Positions 45,399 to 59,321 of a stretch of 60,381 nt of DNA are shown one piece after another. Location of the stretch: IMG/VR virus record IMGVR_UViG_3300037235_000083, positions 1 through 60,381 of that record, one strand, 5' to 3'. The notes beneath the pieces are model-generated. The model was not told the origin of the DNA. It did no database searches and saw nothing but the letters and a program-made list of their open reading frames with translations. The position numbers and the translations under genes are program-made. This DNA comes from a virus. Taxonomy: Duplodnaviria > Caudoviricetes. Position 1 is the first letter of the stretch; the number at the start of each line of letters is the position of its first letter.

Positions 45399-46511
45399 TC
45401 AGACCCCAATCATCTGCGCGATGGCGAATGGCTGGCGGATGACTGCGCCCCACGTTCCTTGCGTCATCTTTTGCTTGTAGCTCGAAAGGTCGCGGATGAT
45501 CGGGCCGGCGCGCAGTTTTTCGCTGAACGCGCAGTAGCCCGTTTCCTGGCCTTCGACCTTGGTAGCGATCAGCTGCACGATTTCGCCCGCCGCCGACCCT
45601 TGCGCGTTCTGAGTGGTCAGGGCCCCGTACTGGATGGCCGGAACCACCTTCAGGTTCGGGTAGTTGGTGCCAAGCAGCGTTTTCACGTTCACGTTGTACG
45701 TGTTCGTGAAATTGAGCGCGCCCGCCGAGTGCGGCGACATGCCCAGCACCATGTCGGATTCGGCGTTGATGTTGCCGCCCGATTGCGCAATGAGCTGCAC
45801 GACCAGGGCGACGATGTCGTTGTAGACCTCCAGGCCCGTCGCGTTGGGGCTGTTGCCGATGAACCAGGTCAGGCCCCCGGCCGCCTTTGGTCCCGGCGCG
45901 ATCGCCGCAGGAAGAGACGGATCGTTCAGCAACCCGTAGTTCTGAAGGCCGGCGATGCCGAAGAAGTAGGACAGGTTTTGGAACTTGTTCAGGTTCACGA
46001 TCGAAGCCTGCTTCAGTTCCGAGGCCCAGCCGATCTTGGCCGCGCCCATGCGCTCCATTTCCAGTTCGCCGTACTCGGCGATGGTCTGGTATAGGTAGTT
46101 TTCGCGCTGTGGGAAGTTCGTGTTGGCGCCGGACTTGCCCGCCTGCGAAAAGTCCCCGTAGGTCGAGACCTCGCCCGTGTGTTCAACGACCGAGAAGACG
46201 GCCGTCACGTCGACGAATGAGCCCTTGCGGACTTCGCCGAAGATTTCAGCCGCGGCGTTCTTCGCGGTCAGGATCCGCAGCACTTCCGGATCCAGGAACG
46301 TGACCAGGAAGGCCGGAATGCCGGACTGCGGGGTGGTAACAAGCTGCGGCTGCGCGTCGTAGGCTCCCTTGAAGTCGCGCTTCCAGGAAGGCTTGACGAA
46401 CACCTGAGCGCCGTCAAAAGCGATGCCATAGGTTTCGCGGTAAAAATCGAGCACCGCGCGCTGCTCGCGCAACGACAGGTCGTATGCGAGTCTGTCGGGC
46501 ATTCTGTCCAT
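45399..46511 (-). CDS. major capsid protein (DUF2184-like)
   Basis: GIPAFL...DP, GE...YGD, YGELE, GL.NYGLLNDP.L, QK...GTWGA.I..P.AI..M.GV. Confidence 0.9.
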   Translation of the reverse strand: MDRMPDRLAYDLSLREQRAVLDFYRETYGIAFDGAQVFVKPSWKRDFKGAYDAQPQLVTTPQSGIPAFLVTFLDPEVLRILTAKNAAAEIFGEVRKGSFVDVTAVFSVVEHTGEVSTYGDFSQAGKSGANTNFPQRENYLYQTIAEYGELEMERMGAAKIGWASELKQASIVNLNKFQNLSYFFGIAGLQNYGLLNDPSLPAAIAPGPKAAGGLTWFIGNSPNATGLEVYNDIVALVVQLIAQSGGNINAESDMVLGMSPHSAGALNFTNTYNVNVKTLLGTNYPNLKVVPAIQYGALTTQNAQGSAAGEIVQLIATKVEGQETGYCAFSEKLRAGPIIRDLSSYKQKMTQGTWGAVIRQPFAIAQMIGV

Positions 46512-47760: not shown

Positions 47761-50700
47761 TTACACGACGCGCAGGCCTGCCGCGGCTGGCGACAGACTG
47801 GCAATCACGCTGTCGACCGTCGCCGCGGAGTCCGCCGCCATGCGCGGGGGCGGCTCACCGTCGGGCCGGCGCTTGGGCTGCGCGGCCAGAATGTGCTTGT
47901 AGGCGGTCGGGTGCACGTCGGTTAAGTCGATTTCCAAGGCTTCGAGCGCCGCCTTGAAGACGCCCTCAGCCGTATCGCAGGCGAGGGTGAGCTTGCCGAC
48001 CCACGGCTGCACGAAGGCCTCGGCGTCGGCCAGGGCGCGCATCTGCGCCATGGTTTCCTTGCGCGTGTTCTTGGTCGCCTCGGCGATCGCCGCGTCCATG
48101 GCGGCCTTGCTGACTGCTTGGGTCATGGCTGCGTCCTTGTCCTTGAGGGGGTCCTTGCCGGGTGAGGTTGCTGGGGGTTTGGGCTGACCTTCGCCGCCAG
48201 GCGGTTCATCCTGGGCCGGCTTCGTTTCTGCCGGAGTGGGCGAGCCCGCTGGCGCAATTTCGGCATGCGGGCCGGCGGGGCGCAGCGCCTTGAGCTTTTC
48301 GCCCAGCCAAGCGTGATGCTCAGGCTTCAGGTGGGGCTTTAAAGCCTCCAGGATTTCGTTCACCGGATCGGCTTCCCCCGGCTTGGCGCCCGGTGCCGCC
48401 GGTGCTGCGGCGGCCGGCGCGGCTGGCGGTTCGCCTTCGGCCGGCGGGGCATCACCGGCTGCACCATAATCGGAATCCAGCGGTTCGGCGCCGCCGGGCG
48501 CCGGCTCGCCAGCTGGCGGCTCGCCCCCGGCTTCGCCCTCGAGCCCGTCAAGCAATTGCGTCAGGGATGCAACGCTCGCATCCTTGGCCAGGACAGTCGC
48601 CGGCAGTTTCAGCTTGCGAACGGCGGCGATGATTTCGGGCTTTTTCGTCTTCCAGTTATCCGAGGCGCACCCGATCAGGATCTTGTTCAGATCCTTTGCG
48701 AACGCGGGGCGCGCGTCTTTTGCCAGCAGTGGCGGAAGGACCGCGAGCAAGGCTCCCTTCGCCAGCATGGCCTTCCGTGACAGCACTTGCTGGGTGGTTC
48801 CCATCTGACCTGACTCCTTTGGTTGGCTATCTCCCACGATTACGTCGGATCCCGCGCGACCGTCCCGCACCAGTGCGACATGGTTGCCTCGGATTTCACG
48901 CATCACGCCGTCGTAACGGCGCCCCTCGAATACGCCCGGCGTCATATCGGCCACGTACCGGTACGAAGCCGACAGTTCACGCGTCTGATTCGTTTCGATC
49001 TGGTCGCACGCGTCCCCGTCCCAGAACACGAGCGAATTGGTGAGGTACGGCGCATTGAAGGCTGCATCCGTTCCGGTCGACCCGATCACCAGTTCCTTGT
49101 CCAGGTCATCAGCGGTGGTGGGCCGGTGATCGGACAGGAGCGGAATGTTGTTGAAGGTCGGAACCGCCTTGGCCAATTCCTGCGGATCGCGCAGCAGGTA
49201 ATAGACCTTGCGTGGTTCGAGCCCGAGTTCTTCGGCGTCCGGAATCTCGAAACCGTAGTACGGGTTGACGGTCGCCTTGCTGATGTTGGCGACCTCGATG
49301 TGCAGCCGGCCGTCCTGGTCGTAGCTGCGCACGCTCGCGCGATCGAACGCCAGCCGTTCGCCGGTGGCGCGATCGAATGCCAGTTCGGGATCTTCGGCCA
49401 GCTCATCGCCAGCCAAGCGGGCAGGGCGCCCGCTATCGTCTACGGAACTGTCTCGTCCGGATGATCCTTCAGGAAGGCTTGCGCTTCCTGGTCCGCCTGG
49501 TCGTCCGCTTCGTTCGCCAGATCCACCAAGGTCTTGCCCTGATGTTTGGCCGCGAACTTCTTCACGGCTTCCGCCACCTTGGCCGGATCCAGTGAGATAT
49601 TCGTATCGGTCTTGCTTGATTCGGCCATCGTCGAGCAGCTTTTTGGCAACGAGTTTCAGAGACGACTTGATGACCTCTGGATCATACCTCGGAACATCAT
49701 CGATCGATCCGACGTGGATATCGCCCAGGTGGCCCTGATTGTTCAGGATATTGATCTTGACTCTGGGATTGCCCGCATAGTGCTGCGCCAGTTCGCGCAC
49801 CGTTTTCGAGGCGCCCAGATGCGCGTGCTCGAGCGTTGCGCCTTGTACGGCCCGCTTGCGGATCGCGTTGAACGCGAAAGCCTTCTCGATGGGCGAGTTC
49901 GTGTAAACGATGCTGACCGGGCCCGGGGCCGTGTTCAGCGCCTCGTCGATTTTCTTGATCGCGGACTTCGTGTTCGACAGCGTCGAATCGAAGGTCAAGC
50001 CATCGTCAGGCAGCCCTAGCGCCTGGATCGCGACGTCCATCGCTTCGGACTTGCCCGACCCGCTGCCGCCGGCCGTGAACAAGGTCGGGCTCTTATCGCC
50101 GCGCGCGGCCTTGTCCTTCAGTGCCGCCGTGAAGATCATCTTCGACAGCAGCGAAGAGGGCTCATGAACCACCGGCGCGAGCTTGCGATCGCCGACGAAC
50201 GATCGGGACAGGAGTTTCACCTTGTCCGGATCGATCACGTTGCCGAAGCGCTTGCGATAGGTACCGATCAGCGCCTTCGGGTTGTGGCGGATCGCGTCGT
50301 AGAAGCCCTGCTCGATCGCGCGGTGCTCAGGGCTCAGGCCCGCGGCGCGCGTGAAGCCGTGCTCGTCGATGTGCTCAGCTTGTGCAGCGCTCTTTTTCGC
50401 CTGCACGGTTGCGGCACGTTTCGCGGCCGTTTTTTCCTTCTTTTCGTTGGCTAGGTCTTCTTCCTGGAGCGCGTTGGCCTGTTCATACAGACGGCGACTT
50501 TCCTGTGGGTTGCTCGCCCGCAGCGCATTGGATTGCCGCAGTAGATCCTTTTGTTTAGCCCGATTGGCTTCCCGGTTGAATGGCGCAGCGCCACCGCCCT
50601 CACCGAACCGTCCACCCTCGTCGCGCGGGTGCTTGGACTCGTCCCACTCAGCGTCCATTCCCATGCGCGCCGCGGCAAGCATCGGCAGGATGCGTTCTAC

Positions 50701-51078
50701 GCCAGGGTGCAGCGGTTCGGGCGGATCGTCGATCTGCGCCCAAATGTGATCCGTGTGTTCGTAGTTCAATTCCGGAGCGAAGAGGTCATCTTTGACGCGC
50801 TGCACGAAGGTGACGAATTCGACGCCGTCCAGTGTCAGGTGCGCCAGCTCGCGAAGCTTTCCTTCCGGAATGTCACCGATTTCCTCGATCGCCTCGCGCC
50901 GGGCCGTCTCGAGCGGGGTTTCATCATCCTTCGCGGTGCCACCTGGCAGGCACCATTCGCCCGCGTGGTCGCCGCGGCTCGAGCGCTTCAGAAACAGGCA
51001 CAGGCCGTCCGGGGTGATGAACGCAATGCCGGCGCCTTCGGTAACGGCGGTACCGGCGTAGCCCGGATCGAATGGCAT
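47761..51078 (-). CDS. polyprotein: NUDIX hydrolase + zeta-toxin-like P-loop kinase + DUF2213-like prohead protease + scaffold
   Basis: Nudix box [22 protein letters not shown]; [17 protein letters not shown]; NISKA.VNPY.G.EIP, ELSASY, NHVALV..GRAG. Confidence 0.88.
49440..49628 (-). CDS. nested +1-frame 62-aa acidic helical protein (candidate antitoxin)
   Basis: [39 protein letters not shown]; GC3-rich codons while the host frame has A/T-ending Gly/Ser/Arg codons. No clear SD. Confidence 0.6.
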
Positions 51079-53868: not shown

Positions 53869-54750
53869 TTACGACTCCATTCGACCGAGTCCCGGAATCA
53901 CGGACCGGCTGACACACCGGCAATTGATCAACTCGCCCGGAAAGATGTACTGCTGTTCCTTCTCGGACCACATGCCTTCACTGATCTTGTAGCGTTTTCG
54001 CGCTGCGCCCCACGCGACATGATCCGGGCGCGGCTCGCGTCCGCCGCCGCTGTGCACCCAGATCGCTTCGGTGATCCCCAGTTCATGCTGCCGCACGCGG
54101 ATACGCGTCGCGGTCGCCTTGTTGTTCTGGTCCCGTGCGATCAGAGCGGCCCGGCGTTCGGTGCGTGCCGAGAGTGACTTGTTAGACTCGCCGGGCTTGC
54201 GACCCAGGCCGATACGCGCCAGGTTCACCTTCGGCCCCAGGTAGTCGGTCAGCGCCGCAAGGTCGCGCCCTACCGCGGCCGATCGCATGACCTCGGTTTC
54301 GATGTCTGTGAAGTAGCGCTGCGGGATCGATTTGATCAGGGACACGTTCTCGCCCGTGGTCGCTTGCCAGACGTCGCGGGTGAGCGGCGTTGTGCGCAAC
54401 CGCACAGAAAAAGCGTGCTTTGCCAGAATCGCCTTCAGCGCCGCGTCGGTGCGCTCGCTAACCTTGGTCGCGAAATACTCGGCTAGGTCCGGGGCCAGTT
54501 CATCGAACCGTTGCTGCCAGCGCTTGGCCAGAGCCCGGATGATCCGGCGCAGGATGACCGATGGGGCGTCGTCCTGCGCCATGCGCGGCGTGTGCGCCCG
54601 ATACGCGGCGGTGAGCCAGTGCACGACGCTGTTGTGCATCTGGGCAATCAGCAATAGCAGCCGGCGCCGGTATTCGACCTCGAGGCCAACGTTGGGGTGG
54701 ATAGGCGCGGCGACTTTAATCGTCGTCTTCGCCGCCTTCGCCATCGTCAT
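53869..54750 (-). CDS. head morphogenesis protein (MuF/SPP1 gp7 family)
   Basis: ENVSLIKSIP, RAALIARDQ..KA, W.HS...PR..H, PGELINCRC. Confidence 0.9.
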   Translation of the reverse strand: MTMAKAAKTTIKVAAPIHPNVGLEVEYRRRLLLLIAQMHNSVVHWLTAAYRAHTPRMAQDDAPSVILRRIIRALAKRWQQRFDELAPDLAEYFATKVSERTDAALKAILAKHAFSVRLRTTPLTRDVWQATTGENVSLIKSIPQRYFTDIETEVMRSAAVGRDLAALTDYLGPKVNLARIGLGRKPGESNKSLSARTERRAALIARDQNNKATATRIRVRQHELGITEAIWVHSGGGREPRPDHVAWGAARKRYKISEGMWSEKEQQYIFPGELINCRCVSRSVIPGLGRMES

Positions 54751-54889
54751 CTTCCGGAATGCTTAGCTTGGCCAGTTCGCGCGCCGTCTGCCGATCCTCT
54801 TCCTCCCACGGTTTCAATCCCAGCATCGCGCGCACCAAGTTCCCGCCAGCCGGGGATTTCCAGATCGCTTTCGCATCAGGGCTCAGCAT
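54716..54889 (-). CDS. 57-aa acidic protein overlapping the portal stop (candidate inhibitor/immunity)
   Basis: SD AAGGGG then MLSPDAKAIWKSPAGGNLVRAMLGLKPWEEEDRQTARELAKLSIPEDDDGEGGEDDD*; below track cutoff. Confidence 0.65.
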   Translation of the reverse strand: MLSPDAKAIWKSPAGGNLVRAMLGLKPWEEEDRQTARELAKLSIPEDDDGEGGEDDD

Positions 54890-57869
54890 GACCAATCCCC
54901 TTCAGTACGTCTTCGCGGCTCGCGGTCGGGATCTGCTCCCCGAAAATGTCGATGCCGCCTCGTTGAGATTCCTGGAAAGCGAAATCGGCCGCCGATCCCA
55001 AGCGTTCGCCGATCGCCTTACCGCTGCGAATGTTCTCCGCCATCATGCTGGCGATGGCGCCTTCGGCGCTGTTCGTGAGTAGATCGCCCTGTTTCAGGAA
55101 CTTCTTCACTGACACGCCGGAGCGCACCGCGTTGATGATTTGCTTGGCAGCACCGGTGACCAGTTCGCGGATGTCCAGTTCGCCCGCGTCTTTCAGCTTG
55201 GCCATCGAGCCGGCCGCGCGGCTCATGCCGGCGATCAGGGTTCTGGATTCCGGGTCGGTCGCCTGAGCCATCAGCCCGACCAGTTCCGAATCGCCGTAAG
55301 CAGCGTGGAAGGTCGCCGCGTGCATCCGGTCTATCGCCTGGCGGGTAGGGCGCCCGTTCGGCGCAAGCGACTGCTGTTCCGAGGCCGGCATCGTCTGTAT
55401 GAAACCGCGCACTGAGGCCTCGGACGGCTGCCCATCATCGTCGTAATCGATCTGGGACGCATCGAACCGATCCGCGTCGTTTCGGGCCTGCTCCACCGCC
55501 GACAGCGTCAAGGTCTGCGTCGTGTTCGACTCGTCTGCTATGCCCTCGGACACGTCGTCTGCATCCATGACCCGGACCAGTACCGGCGATTTCATCGCGC
55601 GGATCGTCTTGCCCGGGATCCCGTGCACCTTGGCGCCCGCGGCGATCGCCGCCTTGTAGGCATCCGCGGTGCCTTTCTTGTAGGCCTCGATGACGCCGGC
55701 CGTGCGGCCGTTATTGATCGCGACCATCTTGTCAGGGTCTTTGGCGTAGTCGGCGTTCTTCACGCCGTCAGCGCTGTTGGACGTGGATATCTGATCGGCT
55801 TCGACCACCGCGTAACGAACGCCCAGTTCGCGCTTTGGCGTCACGATGATGTCCCGGTGGCCGGTGGCCACGGCAATCCCGCGACCGTGAAGATCGGCCA
55901 CCACGGGCGCGCCGTCGGCCATCGTGGGCGCTGCCATCAGTAGGCGCGGGTTCGGGTTGGCCGCGATCTTGGACATCTGGTTGATGCTCGCCGCGCTCGA
56001 GCGGTTGCGGTTCTGCAAAGACTTCAGCAACCCCTCGAGCTTGGCCGAATGCTCAGGCTTGGGCGCCTCGCCCGCGCCTTCCTTGCCGGCTTTGCGCAGC
56101 ACCATCCCGTTCATGCTGCCGCCCGCGCCACCCTTGACCACCCCGCCTTCGGTGATCAGCACCGGCTGGCCACCGCCTTCTTTGCCGCCGTGTACGGTGA
56201 TCCACTTTTCATCGTGGGCCGGCACGGCGCCATTAGGGCGCGCGCCCGGCGGCCGTGCTCCATTGGGGGGCGGCACCGCGCCCGCGTTCGGATTCGGCGG
56301 CTGTTCGGGTCCAGGCTCGCCCTCCGGACCCAGGCCAGGCAGGCCCATCCCTTCCTCGCCAGGCGGTTCGGGCACCATGCTCACGTCCAGCCCGGAATAG
56401 GGCGAGTCTTCCTGCTGGGCCACCCGGTTGCGCGCCTCAGCCGGCGAAATGACGCCGGAATTGATCATCACTTCGTCGGTGTCGGCCTCCACCTTGCGGG
56501 TTTCGGCCAGGATCTTCATATCGTCGTCCGTCAACGGTTCGTACTTGAAACCGATTTCAGGATCGATTTCACCGAACTTCGCAAGCTGAACGATGTTCAG
56601 AATTCGCGTGATCGGCGGCGTATACAGCGATTGCTGCCAGCTCAGGACATTGCGCCCGAACGTCTTCAGTTCCGGCTCAGCCGTCGCATTCAGGCCCTTG
56701 GGCGTGATGCCGAACATGATGATGAGCGGGATGCCGGTCACCGCAGCCTGGTGTTCCTGTGACTGCGCCTGCAATGCATCCAGGGTACCCAGCGGAACAC
56801 TGATGTTGTCGAGTTCTTCAGTGTCCTTATTGAGCATGAACAGGCTGCGGTTATCGCGCGCGCGATTGAAAAGGTCCGCGCGATTGAACATCTGCGTGCC
56901 GGCGCCCGCATTCAGGATGTCCGTCAGATCCGTCTTAAGCGCCATCACGGAAAAATTGTGGATCAGGTCGGACACCGACTGCCGCGTTCGCAGCCAGTTG
57001 TCCACGTATGGCTTCATGATCTGCGTGAGCGACAGGCCCCCGAACCCGTACACCGGTTTGAGCATGTCCGGCACCGGCCGGCTGACCAGCGTCAGCATCC
57101 GGCTGGCGTGCACTTCCGTGCCCATCACATACCAGCTGGTCGCCTTGAAGAAGTCCGGTTTGAGCGGATTCTGGCTGTTGTAGCGATTCGGATACGTCCA
57201 CATCGCTTCGACCGGAACGAGTTGCTGAATACCTCTGCCGATCTTGGACCTCACATCCAGCAACGGCATCGCCAGTTCGTTTCGATCGCGCTCGCTATCA
57301 ACGCCGATCATGTCAAGGAACAGCTGCCCGCGTCCGAAAAACCCGTCATGCTCGGACATCGTGCAAAGCCGGTCCTGCACTTTCAGCCGCTTGAATTCGG
57401 CCTCGATCACGTCGATCTTGTCGTCTTTGTTTTGTTCTCCCGTGGCGGTGAACTTGATCCATTTCATCGTCATCGCCTTGGCGATGATTTCCGACGGACG
57501 GCGGTATTCGGCCCGCTGGGTCAGTTCGGCCAAGTACGGGTAACCGAAGAAGGTCATCCCCTCGCTAAAGCGGCTGTTCGTCATCCAGTCGAACGTGGAT
57601 GACATGTCCGAGTCCATCGCGAGCTTTACCTTGCTCGGAATCACACCGGGGTGAGGGTCAGCCGTTTCCCATTTCGTGCCGGCGGAAGTCGGCCCAGCCG
57701 CGGCCAAGGCCTCGTCGCTGATCCGCATCGGCGCGCGCCGAACCGGCGTGCCGAGGGGTGCCGCGCTGGCGACCGTTTCCAGTGCGGACGAGACTGGCGC
57801 AGGGCCTTTCGAGGGGGGAGAGAGGTGCCAGCCACGCGCCAGCGCGGCAACCTTCGCGAGCCAGTTCAT
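54876..57869 (-). CDS. portal protein (DUF1073-like) fused to a DdrB/ParB-like domain
   Basis: F.GYPYLAEL.QR.EYR, YVDNWLRTRQSVSDL, G.TP.GLNA; extension LQNRNRS..AS..Q...GAPVV..YAVVEA..NGRT..AY..PVLVR. Confidence 0.88.
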   Translation of the reverse strand: MNWLAKVAALARGWHLSPPSKGPAPVSSALETVASAAPLGTPVRRAPMRISDEALAAAGPTSAGTKWETADPHPGVIPSKVKLAMDSDMSSTFDWMTNSRFSEGMTFFGYPYLAELTQRAEYRRPSEIIAKAMTMKWIKFTATGEQNKDDKIDVIEAEFKRLKVQDRLCTMSEHDGFFGRGQLFLDMIGVDSERDRNELAMPLLDVRSKIGRGIQQLVPVEAMWTYPNRYNSQNPLKPDFFKATSWYVMGTEVHASRMLTLVSRPVPDMLKPVYGFGGLSLTQIMKPYVDNWLRTRQSVSDLIHNFSVMALKTDLTDILNAGAGTQMFNRADLFNRARDNRSLFMLNKDTEELDNISVPLGTLDALQAQSQEHQAAVTGIPLIIMFGITPKGLNATAEPELKTFGRNVLSWQQSLYTPPITRILNIVQLAKFGEIDPEIGFKYEPLTDDDMKILAETRKVEADTDEVMINSGVISPAEARNRVAQQEDSPYSGLDVSMVPEPPGEEGMGLPGLGPEGEPGPEQPPNPNAGAVPPPNGARPPGARPNGAVPAHDEKWITVHGGKEGGGQPVLITEGGVVKGGAGGSMNGMVLRKAGKEGAGEAPKPEHSAKLEGLLKSLQNRNRSSAASINQMSKIAANPNPRLLMAAPTMADGAPVVADLHGRGIAVATGHRDIIVTPKRELGVRYAVVEADQISTSNSADGVKNADYAKDPDKMVAINNGRTAGVIEAYKKGTADAYKAAIAAGAKVHGIPGKTIRAMKSPVLVRVMDADDVSEGIADESNTTQTLTLSAVEQARNDADRFDASQIDYDDDGQPSEASVRGFIQTMPASEQQSLAPNGRPTRQAIDRMHAATFHAAYGDSELVGLMAQATDPESRTLIAGMSRAAGSMAKLKDAGELDIRELVTGAAKQIINAVRSGVSVKKFLKQGDLLTNSAEGAIASMMAENIRSGKAIGERLGSAADFAFQESQRGGIDIFGEQIPTASREDVLKGIGHAEP

Positions 57870-59321
57870 TTACGCGCCTGCGATCGCCGCGGCGGAAATG
57901 CGCATCGGATCCAGGCCAGGGGCGAAGATGCTGACGCACGCGTCCGCCAGATTCGGCGATGGCACTTCGCGCTTCAGCAGATCCTTCTTTGATTCCACCT
58001 TGACTCGTCCGTTTTGATCGAAGTCTCGCTTCGGCGTAGATAGTTCGGCGATCAGTTTTTGCAGGTTCGGGGTATCGGAAGCGAACGAAATGATTTCGTC
58101 TTCCTTGAACTTTTCGGCCTTGCGCACCGCGTTGTATGTGTTGCGGCAGCGATCGGCGACCAGCCACCAGGTCTGAGCCTTCAGGTTCGCGAACTGGTCT
58201 TTGTTCTGCGTGGTCGTTCTGGCGTATCTCGCATCCGGGTGCCAGACCCCGGCGCCCGCGTTGAACTTCGAGTACGTGATGAACTTCGCATAGTCCGGCT
58301 CGAGCGCTGGCGGGTGCAGATGATTGGCTAGGTTCAACTCGCCGAATTTCGCGCCCGCCATGGCGCCCACGCCGATCGAGTCGTACACGATATGGGCACC
58401 GCGGTTCGTAGCTTCGCGATACACGCGCGTGCAGGATTTGAGCAGTTCGTCTTCCCCGCCTTTCCACTGCTCGGACCATGAAACGAGCGGCCCATGCCCG
58501 AAGACCTGGGCGTTCAGATCCTTACCTTCGTCGGCGACGTCGAATCCGATCCGGCGCGCGCCCTTCGGTTCCACCTTCAACGCTAGGTGCGCGTCGACCG
58601 CGGCCATCAGCCAGGACCGCTTGATCACGGACGATTCTTCGTCCGTCTTCGGCACACCCAGGTAAATGTGCTGGTATTCCTCGAAATCGCGCGCTTTCAG
58701 TTCCAGGATCGTTTCCAGGAAGTCCGGCGCCAGGAACGGGTTTTCCTCGTAATTGATCAGGCGAACGAGCGTTCGGGGAGGCGGGTTCAGTACGAAATGC
58801 TCGTAGACGAAATCGGTCGCCAGGTACGGATTGAAGATGATCCAGAGCTGGGCGCCGCGCTTGCGCGCGGTGGCCTCGATAACGAGCCACTGTTCCTCGG
58901 TCAGCGCCTCGGCTTCCTCGATCAGGAAAACGTCGATCCCCTCAAGGCCCTTGATTTCCCGAATCTGGCGCCAGATGCCGTAGAAAAGGAATTCAGACTT
59001 GGTCGCCTTGTTGACGATCTTGGCTTCATGCGCCACGAACCGGCGGCCCAAGCCGAATCGGTCGATGGTGTCGACCAGCACCGGCTGCACGGACTCTGAG
59101 AGCTTGTTCTGGAATTGGCGGCAGCAGCACACCCGCAGGCGCGCGTTGTCGGCCATGTAGATCAGCCGGCCGCACGCATCCCACGTCTTGCTCGAGGCCC
59201 GCCCGCCGTACAGGACCCGGTTCCGGTACTGCTTGCCGCTAGCCGGGTCGATGTTCGCGTCCCAGAACGGGCGCAAGCACGGATTCAGGCGCGGGCGCCC
59301 CGCGTACGCACCGTCAGGCAC
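57870..59321 (-). CDS. terL: terminase large subunit (PBSX-type)
   Basis: GGRASSKT, RQFQNK..ESV, IEEAE, IFNP, GFDVADEG.D, SPNLADA. Confidence 0.93.
   Translation of the reverse strand: MPDGAYAGRPRLNPCLRPFWDANIDPASGKQYRNRVLYGGRASSKTWDACGRLIYMADNARLRVCCCRQFQNKLSESVQPVLVDTIDRFGLGRRFVAHEAKIVNKATKSEFLFYGIWRQIREIKGLEGIDVFLIEEAEALTEEQWLVIEATARKRGAQLWIIFNPYLATDFVYEHFVLNPPPRTLVRLINYEENPFLAPDFLETILELKARDFEEYQHIYLGVPKTDEESSVIKRSWLMAAVDAHLALKVEPKGARRIGFDVADEGKDLNAQVFGHGPLVSWSEQWKGGEDELLKSCTRVYREATNRGAHIVYDSIGVGAMAGAKFGELNLANHLHPPALEPDYAKFITYSKFNAGAGVWHPDARYARTTTQNKDQFANLKAQTWWLVADRCRNTYNAVRKAEKFKEDEIISFASDTPNLQKLIAELSTPKRDFDQNGRVKVESKKDLLKREVPSPNLADACVSIFAPGLDPMRISAAAIAGA

Follow-up and report, generated by a model that had tools for sequence, protein, structure and literature searches.

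Does the linker between a kinase and a head maturation protease only join two domains, or does it also encode, in another frame, a small protein that acts on the kinase? The question is raised by IMGVR_UViG_3300037235_000083, a virus record of 60,381 bases with a G+C content of 62%, which was analysed over its whole length and is referred to here as the window. On its minus strand, a single open reading frame (ORF) of 1105 amino acids (aa) carries a zeta-toxin-like kinase followed by a linker rich in Gly, Ser and Arg (G/S/R). A preliminary description of the window had proposed that a 62-aa ORF in the +1 frame of this linker encodes an antitoxin, the two forming a toxin–antitoxin pair captured inside the protease gene, with the antitoxin giving protection in late expression and the kinase alone entering the capsid. 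We find that the 62-aa ORF is probably a real, selected gene, that its product would be a cognate partner of the kinase, immunity- or antitoxin-like, and that it would have become nested when the kinase ORF read through it; we give this reading as a whole a probability of about 0.65. The features on which the argument turns are the following.

47761..51078, minus strand: polyprotein ORF of 1105 aa, with NUDIX domain, spacer, zeta-like kinase, G/S/R linker, DUF2213 prohead protease and scaffold-like tail.
50374..50649, minus strand: N-terminal part of the kinase module (aa 144-235), with an EW-E-HPRD-GRF motif and a helical spacer, also found in the portal-kinase fusion of locus L004.
49585..50373, minus strand: zeta-toxin-like P-loop kinase domain (aa 236-498), assigned from profile, fold and motif evidence.
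50224..50226, minus strand: Asp285, the second D of an invariant DPD, placed by hidden Markov model (HMM) alignment on the catalytic Asp56 of ng_zeta1.
50047..50070, minus strand: Walker A motif GGSGSGKS (aa 337-344), read from the sequence and largely invariant in an alignment of seven kinase relatives.
49399..49587, minus strand: main-frame G/S/R-rich linker (aa 498-560), of which about 147 nucleotides (nt), 49443..49587, are shared with the nested gene.
49440..49628, minus strand: putative nested +1-frame gene of 62 aa, with its ATG at 49628 and a TAG stop at 49442-49440.

Over the linker, the signals of coding change frame. The +1 frame is open from 49655, and a start at the TTG at 49649 gives 69 aa, a start at the ATG at 49628 the 62 aa considered here. 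Across aa 491-540, the G+C content of main-frame third codon positions goes down to 0.27-0.37; the same bases read in the +1 frame have G+C contents of about 0.77, about 0.3 and 0.73-0.83 at positions 1, 2 and 3, which is the phage’s normal coding pattern. The preliminary description had pointed to rare codons in the G/S/R main frame and to ordinary codons in the acidic, helical +1 ORF, and codon statistics bear out both observations. In nine reference gene stretches of the window, GGA, CGA, CCA, TCA and CTT each make up just 7-11% of the codons synonymous with them. Read in the main frame, the linker has a codon score (-0.302) that lies under all 349 reference windows of 62 codons (minimum -0.222), and the +1-frame score of 0.230 falls at their 30th percentile. 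ORFs of at least 40 aa number 50 in 6 kb of this 62% GC DNA, and therefore the length of the +1 ORF is by itself no evidence for a gene; the codon signal and the homologs described below appear to raise it above chance.

The linker is covered by contigs from three further sequencing runs, with 0 differences and no insertions or deletions (indels), and its sequence is therefore not an assembly slip.

49200-50186: contig X7, identical to the window.
49200-49672: contig X8, identical to the window.
49300-49568: contig X11, identical to the window.

We note that the stretch 49200-50400 also occurs in soil-metagenome contigs of several studies and in one metatranscriptome library, with letter-for-letter identity among the four runs compared, and the phage seems to be widespread in soils. 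The identical contigs yielded no variants, and the presence of the stretch in contigs of an RNA library is no sign of transcription.

Homologs of the encoded peptide form a small family. The peptide itself is acidic (13 D/E vs 7 K), and its AlphaFold2 (AF2) model consists of two helices, at residues 15-28 and 34-55. A phmmer search of 1.84 billion representative proteins returned three proteins at E<=0.001: the ORF itself, a repeat protein, and P0082, a free-standing protein of 67 aa with 45% identity to the peptide (E 7.7e-5). Two more free-standing proteins of 63 aa each, P0084 and P0085, came from a profile search. The family amounts to only four clusters among 5.8 billion database proteins, and all its members share the motif G-x-T-L-[LV]-D-L-A-N-E-A-D ... 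H-P-x-x-T. Searches by tblastn found no match to the peptide in GenBank phages and none in plasmids, and the ESM Atlas gave no informative neighbour for it. P0082 is encoded at L002 (6001-6204, plus strand) between a 939-aa PLD-like protein and large opposite-strand genes that have no Pfam match, and it could be a host-side orphan immunity gene. A candidate at L006 (5980-6102) was not counted as a family member: there, a 1202-aa HsdR-like helicase ORF has a 26-residue stretch of similarity and contains GTLVLDLANEADAIRAAFEPYYETTL, which strikingly resembles the core of the small family, through chance or distant kinship.

The arrangement of kinase and small gene recurs in a phage unrelated to that of the window. 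Loci L004, L005, L007 and L008 belong to one and the same viral contig, in which a 915-aa portal-kinase ORF ends ...KYKYLVGSGSGS and stop codon, and an 80-aa homolog of the peptide begins 47 nt ahead of this stop codon; its frame relative to the kinase is +1, as it is in the window, and the next gene is MuF-like. Five more stops lie in the kinase frame past its stop codon, and therefore only the frame of the small gene can code there. In the window, the ATG at 49628 occupies the position homologous to the start of the L004 small gene, the ORF is full length, and it begins 39 nt before the last kinase-domain codon, which places a small ORF at the 3' end of the effector. At L010, a 58-aa ORF with an ATG lies in the +1 frame at the kinase-domain boundary within a longer ORF and matches the small-protein HMM with an E of 2.3e-4; it lacks the C-terminal third of the family and is a second nested case. 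A further locus that resembles P0061 (L017) was considered as an additional case and set aside, as the kinase domain is absent there.

Elsewhere, the region beside the kinase differs. At two loci with kinases of low GC content, L001 (1168-1470, minus strand) and L015 (1283-1492, minus strand), the small family was not found; at both, the kinase stop is directly adjoined, in convergent orientation, by a conserved ORF of about 65-70 aa (M-G/S-T-Y-Y-Q/E-D-L-K-K-N..P-A-K-Y-A-D...), which may represent a different partner family. The two metagenome-assembled genomes that hold L015 and L016 gave no match to the small protein.

Selection on the +1 frame can be read from P0002, a close relative of the polyprotein that is 75% identical overall and has the same open main frame, with no indel in the overlap. 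Between the window and P0002, all ten main-frame replacements at aa 498-540 can each be explained, by parsimony from the protein, by one base substitution that leaves the +1-frame product unaltered, where a chance of 0.28 per replacement change is expected (P about 3e-6 for ten of ten); P0002 is known as a protein only, so that main-frame third-position changes, which always alter the +1 frame, and the start and stop of the +1 ORF are invisible in this count. The P0002 linker also fits 46 of the 62 columns of the small family, as did none of 500 shuffles. Differences between the window and L004 at +1-frame positions 1, 2 and 3 number 23, 16 and 32, those between the window and L002 number 27, 22 and 38, and the conserved core of the small gene carries many synonymous third-base differences from both. 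As judged from these sequence comparisons, the +1-frame ORF is under purifying selection. Frame-specific conservation, one of the checks proposed in the preliminary description, is accordingly seen in the ten silent changes, in the existence of free-standing homologs, and in the synteny with another phage.

The same comparisons suggest what the main-frame linker is. When the free-standing gene of L002 is read in its untranslated shifted frame, it gives ...CGQDAAGSGERS..., with the GQD..GSGERS image also present in the window linker, and this shifted image is as near to the window linker as are the true linkers of other long kinase proteins. The overlapping G/S/R linker thus appears to be the shifted image of the nested gene. 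Random synonymous recoding of the small gene leaves the main frame open in 7.2% of 20000 trials; the open main frame in the window and in P0002, a precondition of the kinase-protease fusion, is therefore mildly unexpected. Full-length hidden genes were also sought in P0046, P0061 and P0068 and rejected, the observed fit being reached by 180, 26 and 108 of 500 shuffles, respectively; the linkers of these proteins resemble the family in its core motif only.

The kinase next to this gene is, by profile and model, a relative of zeta toxins. A profile of seven kinase relatives finds 6eph_B, the Zeta_1 toxin of the gonococcus, as a match in the PDB at E 9.2e-12 over profile positions 40-254 of 262. 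The AF2 model of the kinase (predicted local distance difference test score, pLDDT, 88.4) has the same PDB entry, 6eph_B, as its top Foldseek match (E 1.8e-10, TMq 0.75), followed by AvrRxo1, 3q8x, PezT 2p5t and zeta 1gvn at TMq 0.37-0.45. The catalytic Asp is Asp56 in ng_zeta1 and Asp67 in zeta, according to passages of PMC5923241, and the window kinase has both its equivalent and the Walker A motif listed above. The placement of a zeta-like kinase inside the protease gene, as described earlier, is upheld by this evidence. A search with the Pfam family Zeta_toxin (PF06414), which the preliminary description had called for, gave a divided result: the seven aligned relatives all match it (E<=0.1, best 4.2e-15), and the window copy falls below the gathering cut-off, as detailed further on. 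By analogy with zeta toxins, the kinase would be toxic, presumably by phosphorylating UDP-sugars. A tblastn search with the kinase found one distant record in GenBank phages, at 27.6% identity, and none in plasmids, and the kinase profile matched two of 400 scored genomes of one class, with the small gene beside neither match.

Modelling of the kinase together with the peptide, also suggested at the outset, yields a confident complex. Its ipSAE, a score that expresses the model’s own confidence, is 0.81 vs 0.47 for the best of three controls. In a calibration, the mark was reached by 58 of 80 solved complexes and by 2 of 110 mismatched pairs, counts that serve only as a rough guide with custom alignments. 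Three complex runs share at least 89% of contacts, and the pLDDT of the partner is at least 79. In the kinase domain, the confident interface takes in residues 116, 118-119 and 122-129, at the P-loop and its helix, along with 161-165, 177, 180-183 (the conserved Arg pair) and 214-230. The peptide is therefore predicted to cover the P-loop/ATP site of the kinase.

These results can be joined in a single scheme. The small acidic two-helix protein, translated independently from its own start, would bind over the P-loop/ATP site and hold the kinase in an inactive state while the cell that makes it expresses the late genes. In most relatives, the kinase module is the last part of a portal or MuF-type protein, and its end is also that of the ORF; here, the kinase ORF has no such stop and reads across the partner gene in a shifted frame, producing a G/S/R linker that would be disordered. 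The sequence of this linker would be set by the nested gene, and it runs in frame into the protease/scaffold gene. The fusion would bring the NUDIX and kinase domains into the procapsid, where the protease might release them.

Several observations weigh against this scheme. The window kinase domain scores 19.8 bits (E 5.9e-4) against Zeta_toxin, with a gathering cut-off of 22.3, and 13 bits when scored within the whole protein. There is no Shine-Dalgarno-like sequence before the ATG at 49628, as is also the case for several other genes of the phage. Modelled alone, the peptide has an AF2 pLDDT of just 76.5 and an Atlas value of 0.53; it has no Pfam family and no match in the PDB, where the best sequence match is a ferritin at E 0.31. 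The alignments behind the complex are thin (7 and 4 rows), and epsilon/zeta-type complexes are present in the PDB, so that the interface score may partly reflect memory of them; the partner itself has no solved relative. To these we add the changes in P0002 that its protein sequence conceals. Finally, the small family lies beside the kinase in just three of the nine loci or lineages with downstream DNA (the window, the L004 group, L010, L001/L011, L012, L013, L015, L019 and L020), and P0082 has no kinase neighbour.

The proposal of a captured toxin-antitoxin pair is supported, with qualifications: each refuting condition of the preliminary description that could be computed was decided in its favour. 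Kinship with epsilon antitoxins is not apparent, as none of the four family members has a Pfam antitoxin match (no fold search was made with the peptide), and the pair is less like a classical plasmid-addiction module. Judged by its sequence relatives, it looks more like a cassette of a toxin with downstream immunity carried on phage head proteins; most of the 80 relatives have the same kinase module as the C-terminal end of a portal or MuF-type protein.

The most serious competing explanation, which we consider improbable, accepts that the nested gene is real and expressed and gives its product another function than kinase inhibition, as a chaperone in folding or assembly, a packaging adaptor, a regulator, or a protein directed at a host target. 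It would sit well with a small family that lacks known relatives, with the position of P0082 between PLD-like and unknown genes with no kinase near, and with the absence of the partner beside most kinase relatives. However, the predicted interface falls on the P-loop and the helix that follows it and holds up against the controls, and an unrelated phage has the gene in the same place and frame relative to the 3' end of its kinase. Moreover, a small ORF downstream of a head-protein toxin is at the usual place of an immunity gene, as described in parts of PMC5576092.

Alternatively, the +1 ORF could be a relic, a once separate downstream gene into which the kinase ORF ran on after losing its stop codon; its translation would have ceased, and its coding-like appearance would only reflect how recent the event is. 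The missing ribosome-binding site is compatible with such a history, as are the truncated copy at L010, where the main frame has the more coding-like base pattern, and the linkers of P0046, P0061 and P0068, which hold an image of the core only and whose full-length compatibility is not significant. In the window, however, the ORF retains its whole length and its ATG corresponds to the L004 start, the +1-frame product is unchanged by all ten substitutions visible in the overlap between two phages at 75% protein identity, and the P0002 linker retains its fit to the family beyond every shuffle. We accordingly regard a relic as decidedly improbable.

A +1 ribosomal shift near the end of the kinase, which would produce a NUDIX-kinase protein with an auto-inhibitory helical tail ending at 49440 alongside the read-through polyprotein, would explain the +1-frame overlap of the ORF with the 3' end of the kinase, seen in the window and in L004 alike, and would need no ribosome-binding site for independent initiation. 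Against it stand free-standing relatives of the same size, which have their own start codons and no upstream kinase; no known +1 shift signal was seen by eye, and +1 shifting is rare in bacteria. We consider this explanation very improbable. A programmed -1 shift at the CCAAAAAG run (49643-49636) was rejected, as it leads into the wrong frame. Lastly, an artefact, whether a chance ORF in GC-rich DNA, where long off-frame ORFs are common, or paired sequencing indels that falsely fuse two genes, is refuted as far as sequence data can do so by homologs found at E 7.7e-5 in so large a database, the codon statistics, the identical contigs of other runs, and the same open main frame in P0002.

Having named a selected partner gene as the preferred reading, we turn to the setting in which its kinase is found. 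The kinase domain is common to 80 database proteins, about 73 of which stop at its C-terminus, and most of the relatives have a portal (PF06381) or MuF-type (PF04233) domain ahead of it. Window aa 144-501 align with residues 555-914 of the 915-aa portal fusion of L004 at 59% identity (BLASTP, E 2e-117), and P0046, P0061 and P0068 join the same kinase to PF18763 or PF18760 domains. The kinase module (aa 144-498) therefore appears to be a mobile cargo cassette attached to head-built proteins. In the window, the effector is internal and its carrier is the downstream DUF2213 protease, and not a MuF or portal protein with the effector at its C-terminus. In the window (50620-50649, minus strand; aa 144-153) as in the portal fusion of L004, the kinase module is delimited on its N-terminal side by the EW-E-HPRD-GRF motif, which may serve cargo modules as a signal for junction or processing.

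The remaining parts of the polyprotein and its neighbours on the same strand are as follows.

50683..51036, minus strand: NUDIX hydrolase domain (aa 15-132; Pfam PF00293, E 2.1e-13).
48826..49329, minus strand: DUF2213 prohead (head maturation) protease domain (aa 584-751; Pfam PF09979, E 4.6e-46).
47761..48825, minus strand: A/P/E-rich C-terminal tail (aa 752-1105, including the stop codon), into which the phrog_2229 match extends as far as aa 1090.
57870..59321, minus strand: terminase gene of the head-gene block.
54876..57869, minus strand: portal gene (PF06381) of the head-gene block.
53869..54750, minus strand: MuF-like head morphogenesis gene of the head-gene block.
45399..46511, minus strand: major head protein gene of the head-gene block.

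The head maturation protease family phrog_2229 matches the polyprotein over aa 574-1090 with an E of 5.5e-122, and the A/P/E-rich tail of the protease protein is probably scaffold-like. On the minus strand, the head-gene block runs from terminase through portal, MuF-like gene, two structural genes and the 1105-aa ORF to minor head and major head genes. NUDIX, kinase and protease domains are joined in a single ORF flanked by terminase, portal, MuF-like and major head genes, the arrangement of a polyvalent protein. Two further observations concern modules of this kind. The portal of the window (54876-57869, minus strand) is extended at its C-terminus by a ddrB-like ParB domain (PF18763, aa 616-768) and then by a tail with matches to PHROGs of polyvalent type, which makes it a second head-cargo fusion within the same phage. 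In P0002, residues about 160-255 hold a short GNAT-like insert (PF00583, precomputed) in place of the helical spacer between NUDIX and kinase in the window (50374-50649), an exchange that looks like module swapping within the polyprotein.

If the preferred reading holds, the locus would be a clean natural case of dual coding, in which one frame, that of the small gene, is selected and the other is tolerated as a disordered linker, and in which an enzyme and its predicted inhibitor come from the same stretch of mRNA, giving the overlap a built-in functional logic. Gene finders miss such genes, and immunity partners of phage-delivered toxins may be under-counted because the small family has only four clusters among the billions of proteins searched. 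Fusion to a prohead protease/scaffold would add a further route for loading effectors into capsids, beyond portal and MuF fusions. The modelled complex also offers a candidate inhibitor of a zeta-type kinase, and toxins of this class attract interest as targets for antibacterials.

A wider generalization, which we hold possible if unlikely, is that immunity genes for head-packaged toxins are hidden in the +1 frame of the linkers of cargo or polyvalent proteins, that they are part of a switch operated in the capsid, and that bacteria keep copies as shields. Gene callers would then never report such linker-hidden immunity genes, and the ‘GQDLG..ER.G’ linkers that follow the kinase in P0046, P0061, P0068 and L010 would represent copies of them, either still alive or in decay. 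Synthesis of toxin and antidote would be tied to a single mRNA; inside the procapsid, the protease in cis would cleave the linker and degrade the antidote bound there, so that arming of the kinase is confined to the virion. Copies that stand free in bacteria, P0082 with its PLD-like neighbour among them, would shield the host from kinase that is injected.

Among known systems, epsilon/zeta modules, which are type II toxin-antitoxin systems, are the nearest for the enzyme. The epsilon gene classically precedes zeta; in the window, the partner gene is downstream, within the kinase’s own ORF in another frame and with no separate cistron. The kinase is a sequence and fold relative with the Walker A motif and the catalytic Asp of ng_epsilon1/ng_zeta1 from Neisseria gonorrhoeae (PDB 6EPG/6EPH/6EPI), as this system is described in passages of PMC5923241. 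A small, helical, acidic partner is predicted to lie over the ATP-binding region; no similarity between this partner and epsilon proteins could be detected, and its model has two helices, in contrast to the three-helix bundle of epsilon. Furthermore, the window kinase is one domain of a 1105-aa polyprotein and not a free toxin.

For the gene arrangement, the closest likeness is with the MuF polymorphic toxins of temperate phages (Jamet et al. 2017, in the parts of PMC5576092 consulted), in which an effector is likewise fused to a head-built protein and a small downstream immunity ORF, comparable to the unknown-family ORF at the 3' end of the effector in the window, is present. Unlike in these systems, the carrier in the window is a prohead protease/scaffold on the C-terminal side of the effector, and the immunity-like ORF is fully nested out of frame instead of following a stop codon. 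Zeta-toxin-like kinases fused to MuF domains in phages appear in passages of Iyer et al. 2017 (PMC5512222), whose polyvalent proteins resemble the 1105-aa protein in being multi-domain phage proteins encoded among head genes; a kinase partner or immunity gene, an overlapping gene and a prohead-protease fusion are absent from the passages of that paper that were searched.

Full-text literature searches for the nested arrangement returned no natural precedent, only engineered ‘entangled’ toxin overlaps. As for small genes within larger ones in general, lambda Rz1 is wholly embedded out of frame inside Rz. Both there and here, a small gene lies in the +1 frame inside a larger one and the products act, or in our case would act, together; Rz and Rz1 are subunits of one lysis complex, in contrast to an enzyme and its predicted inhibitor, and in the window the embedding stretch is only a linker. 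Set beside all these systems, the partner family, its full out-of-frame nesting in the linker of its own toxin, the prohead protease as carrier, and the NUDIX companion domain appear to be new.

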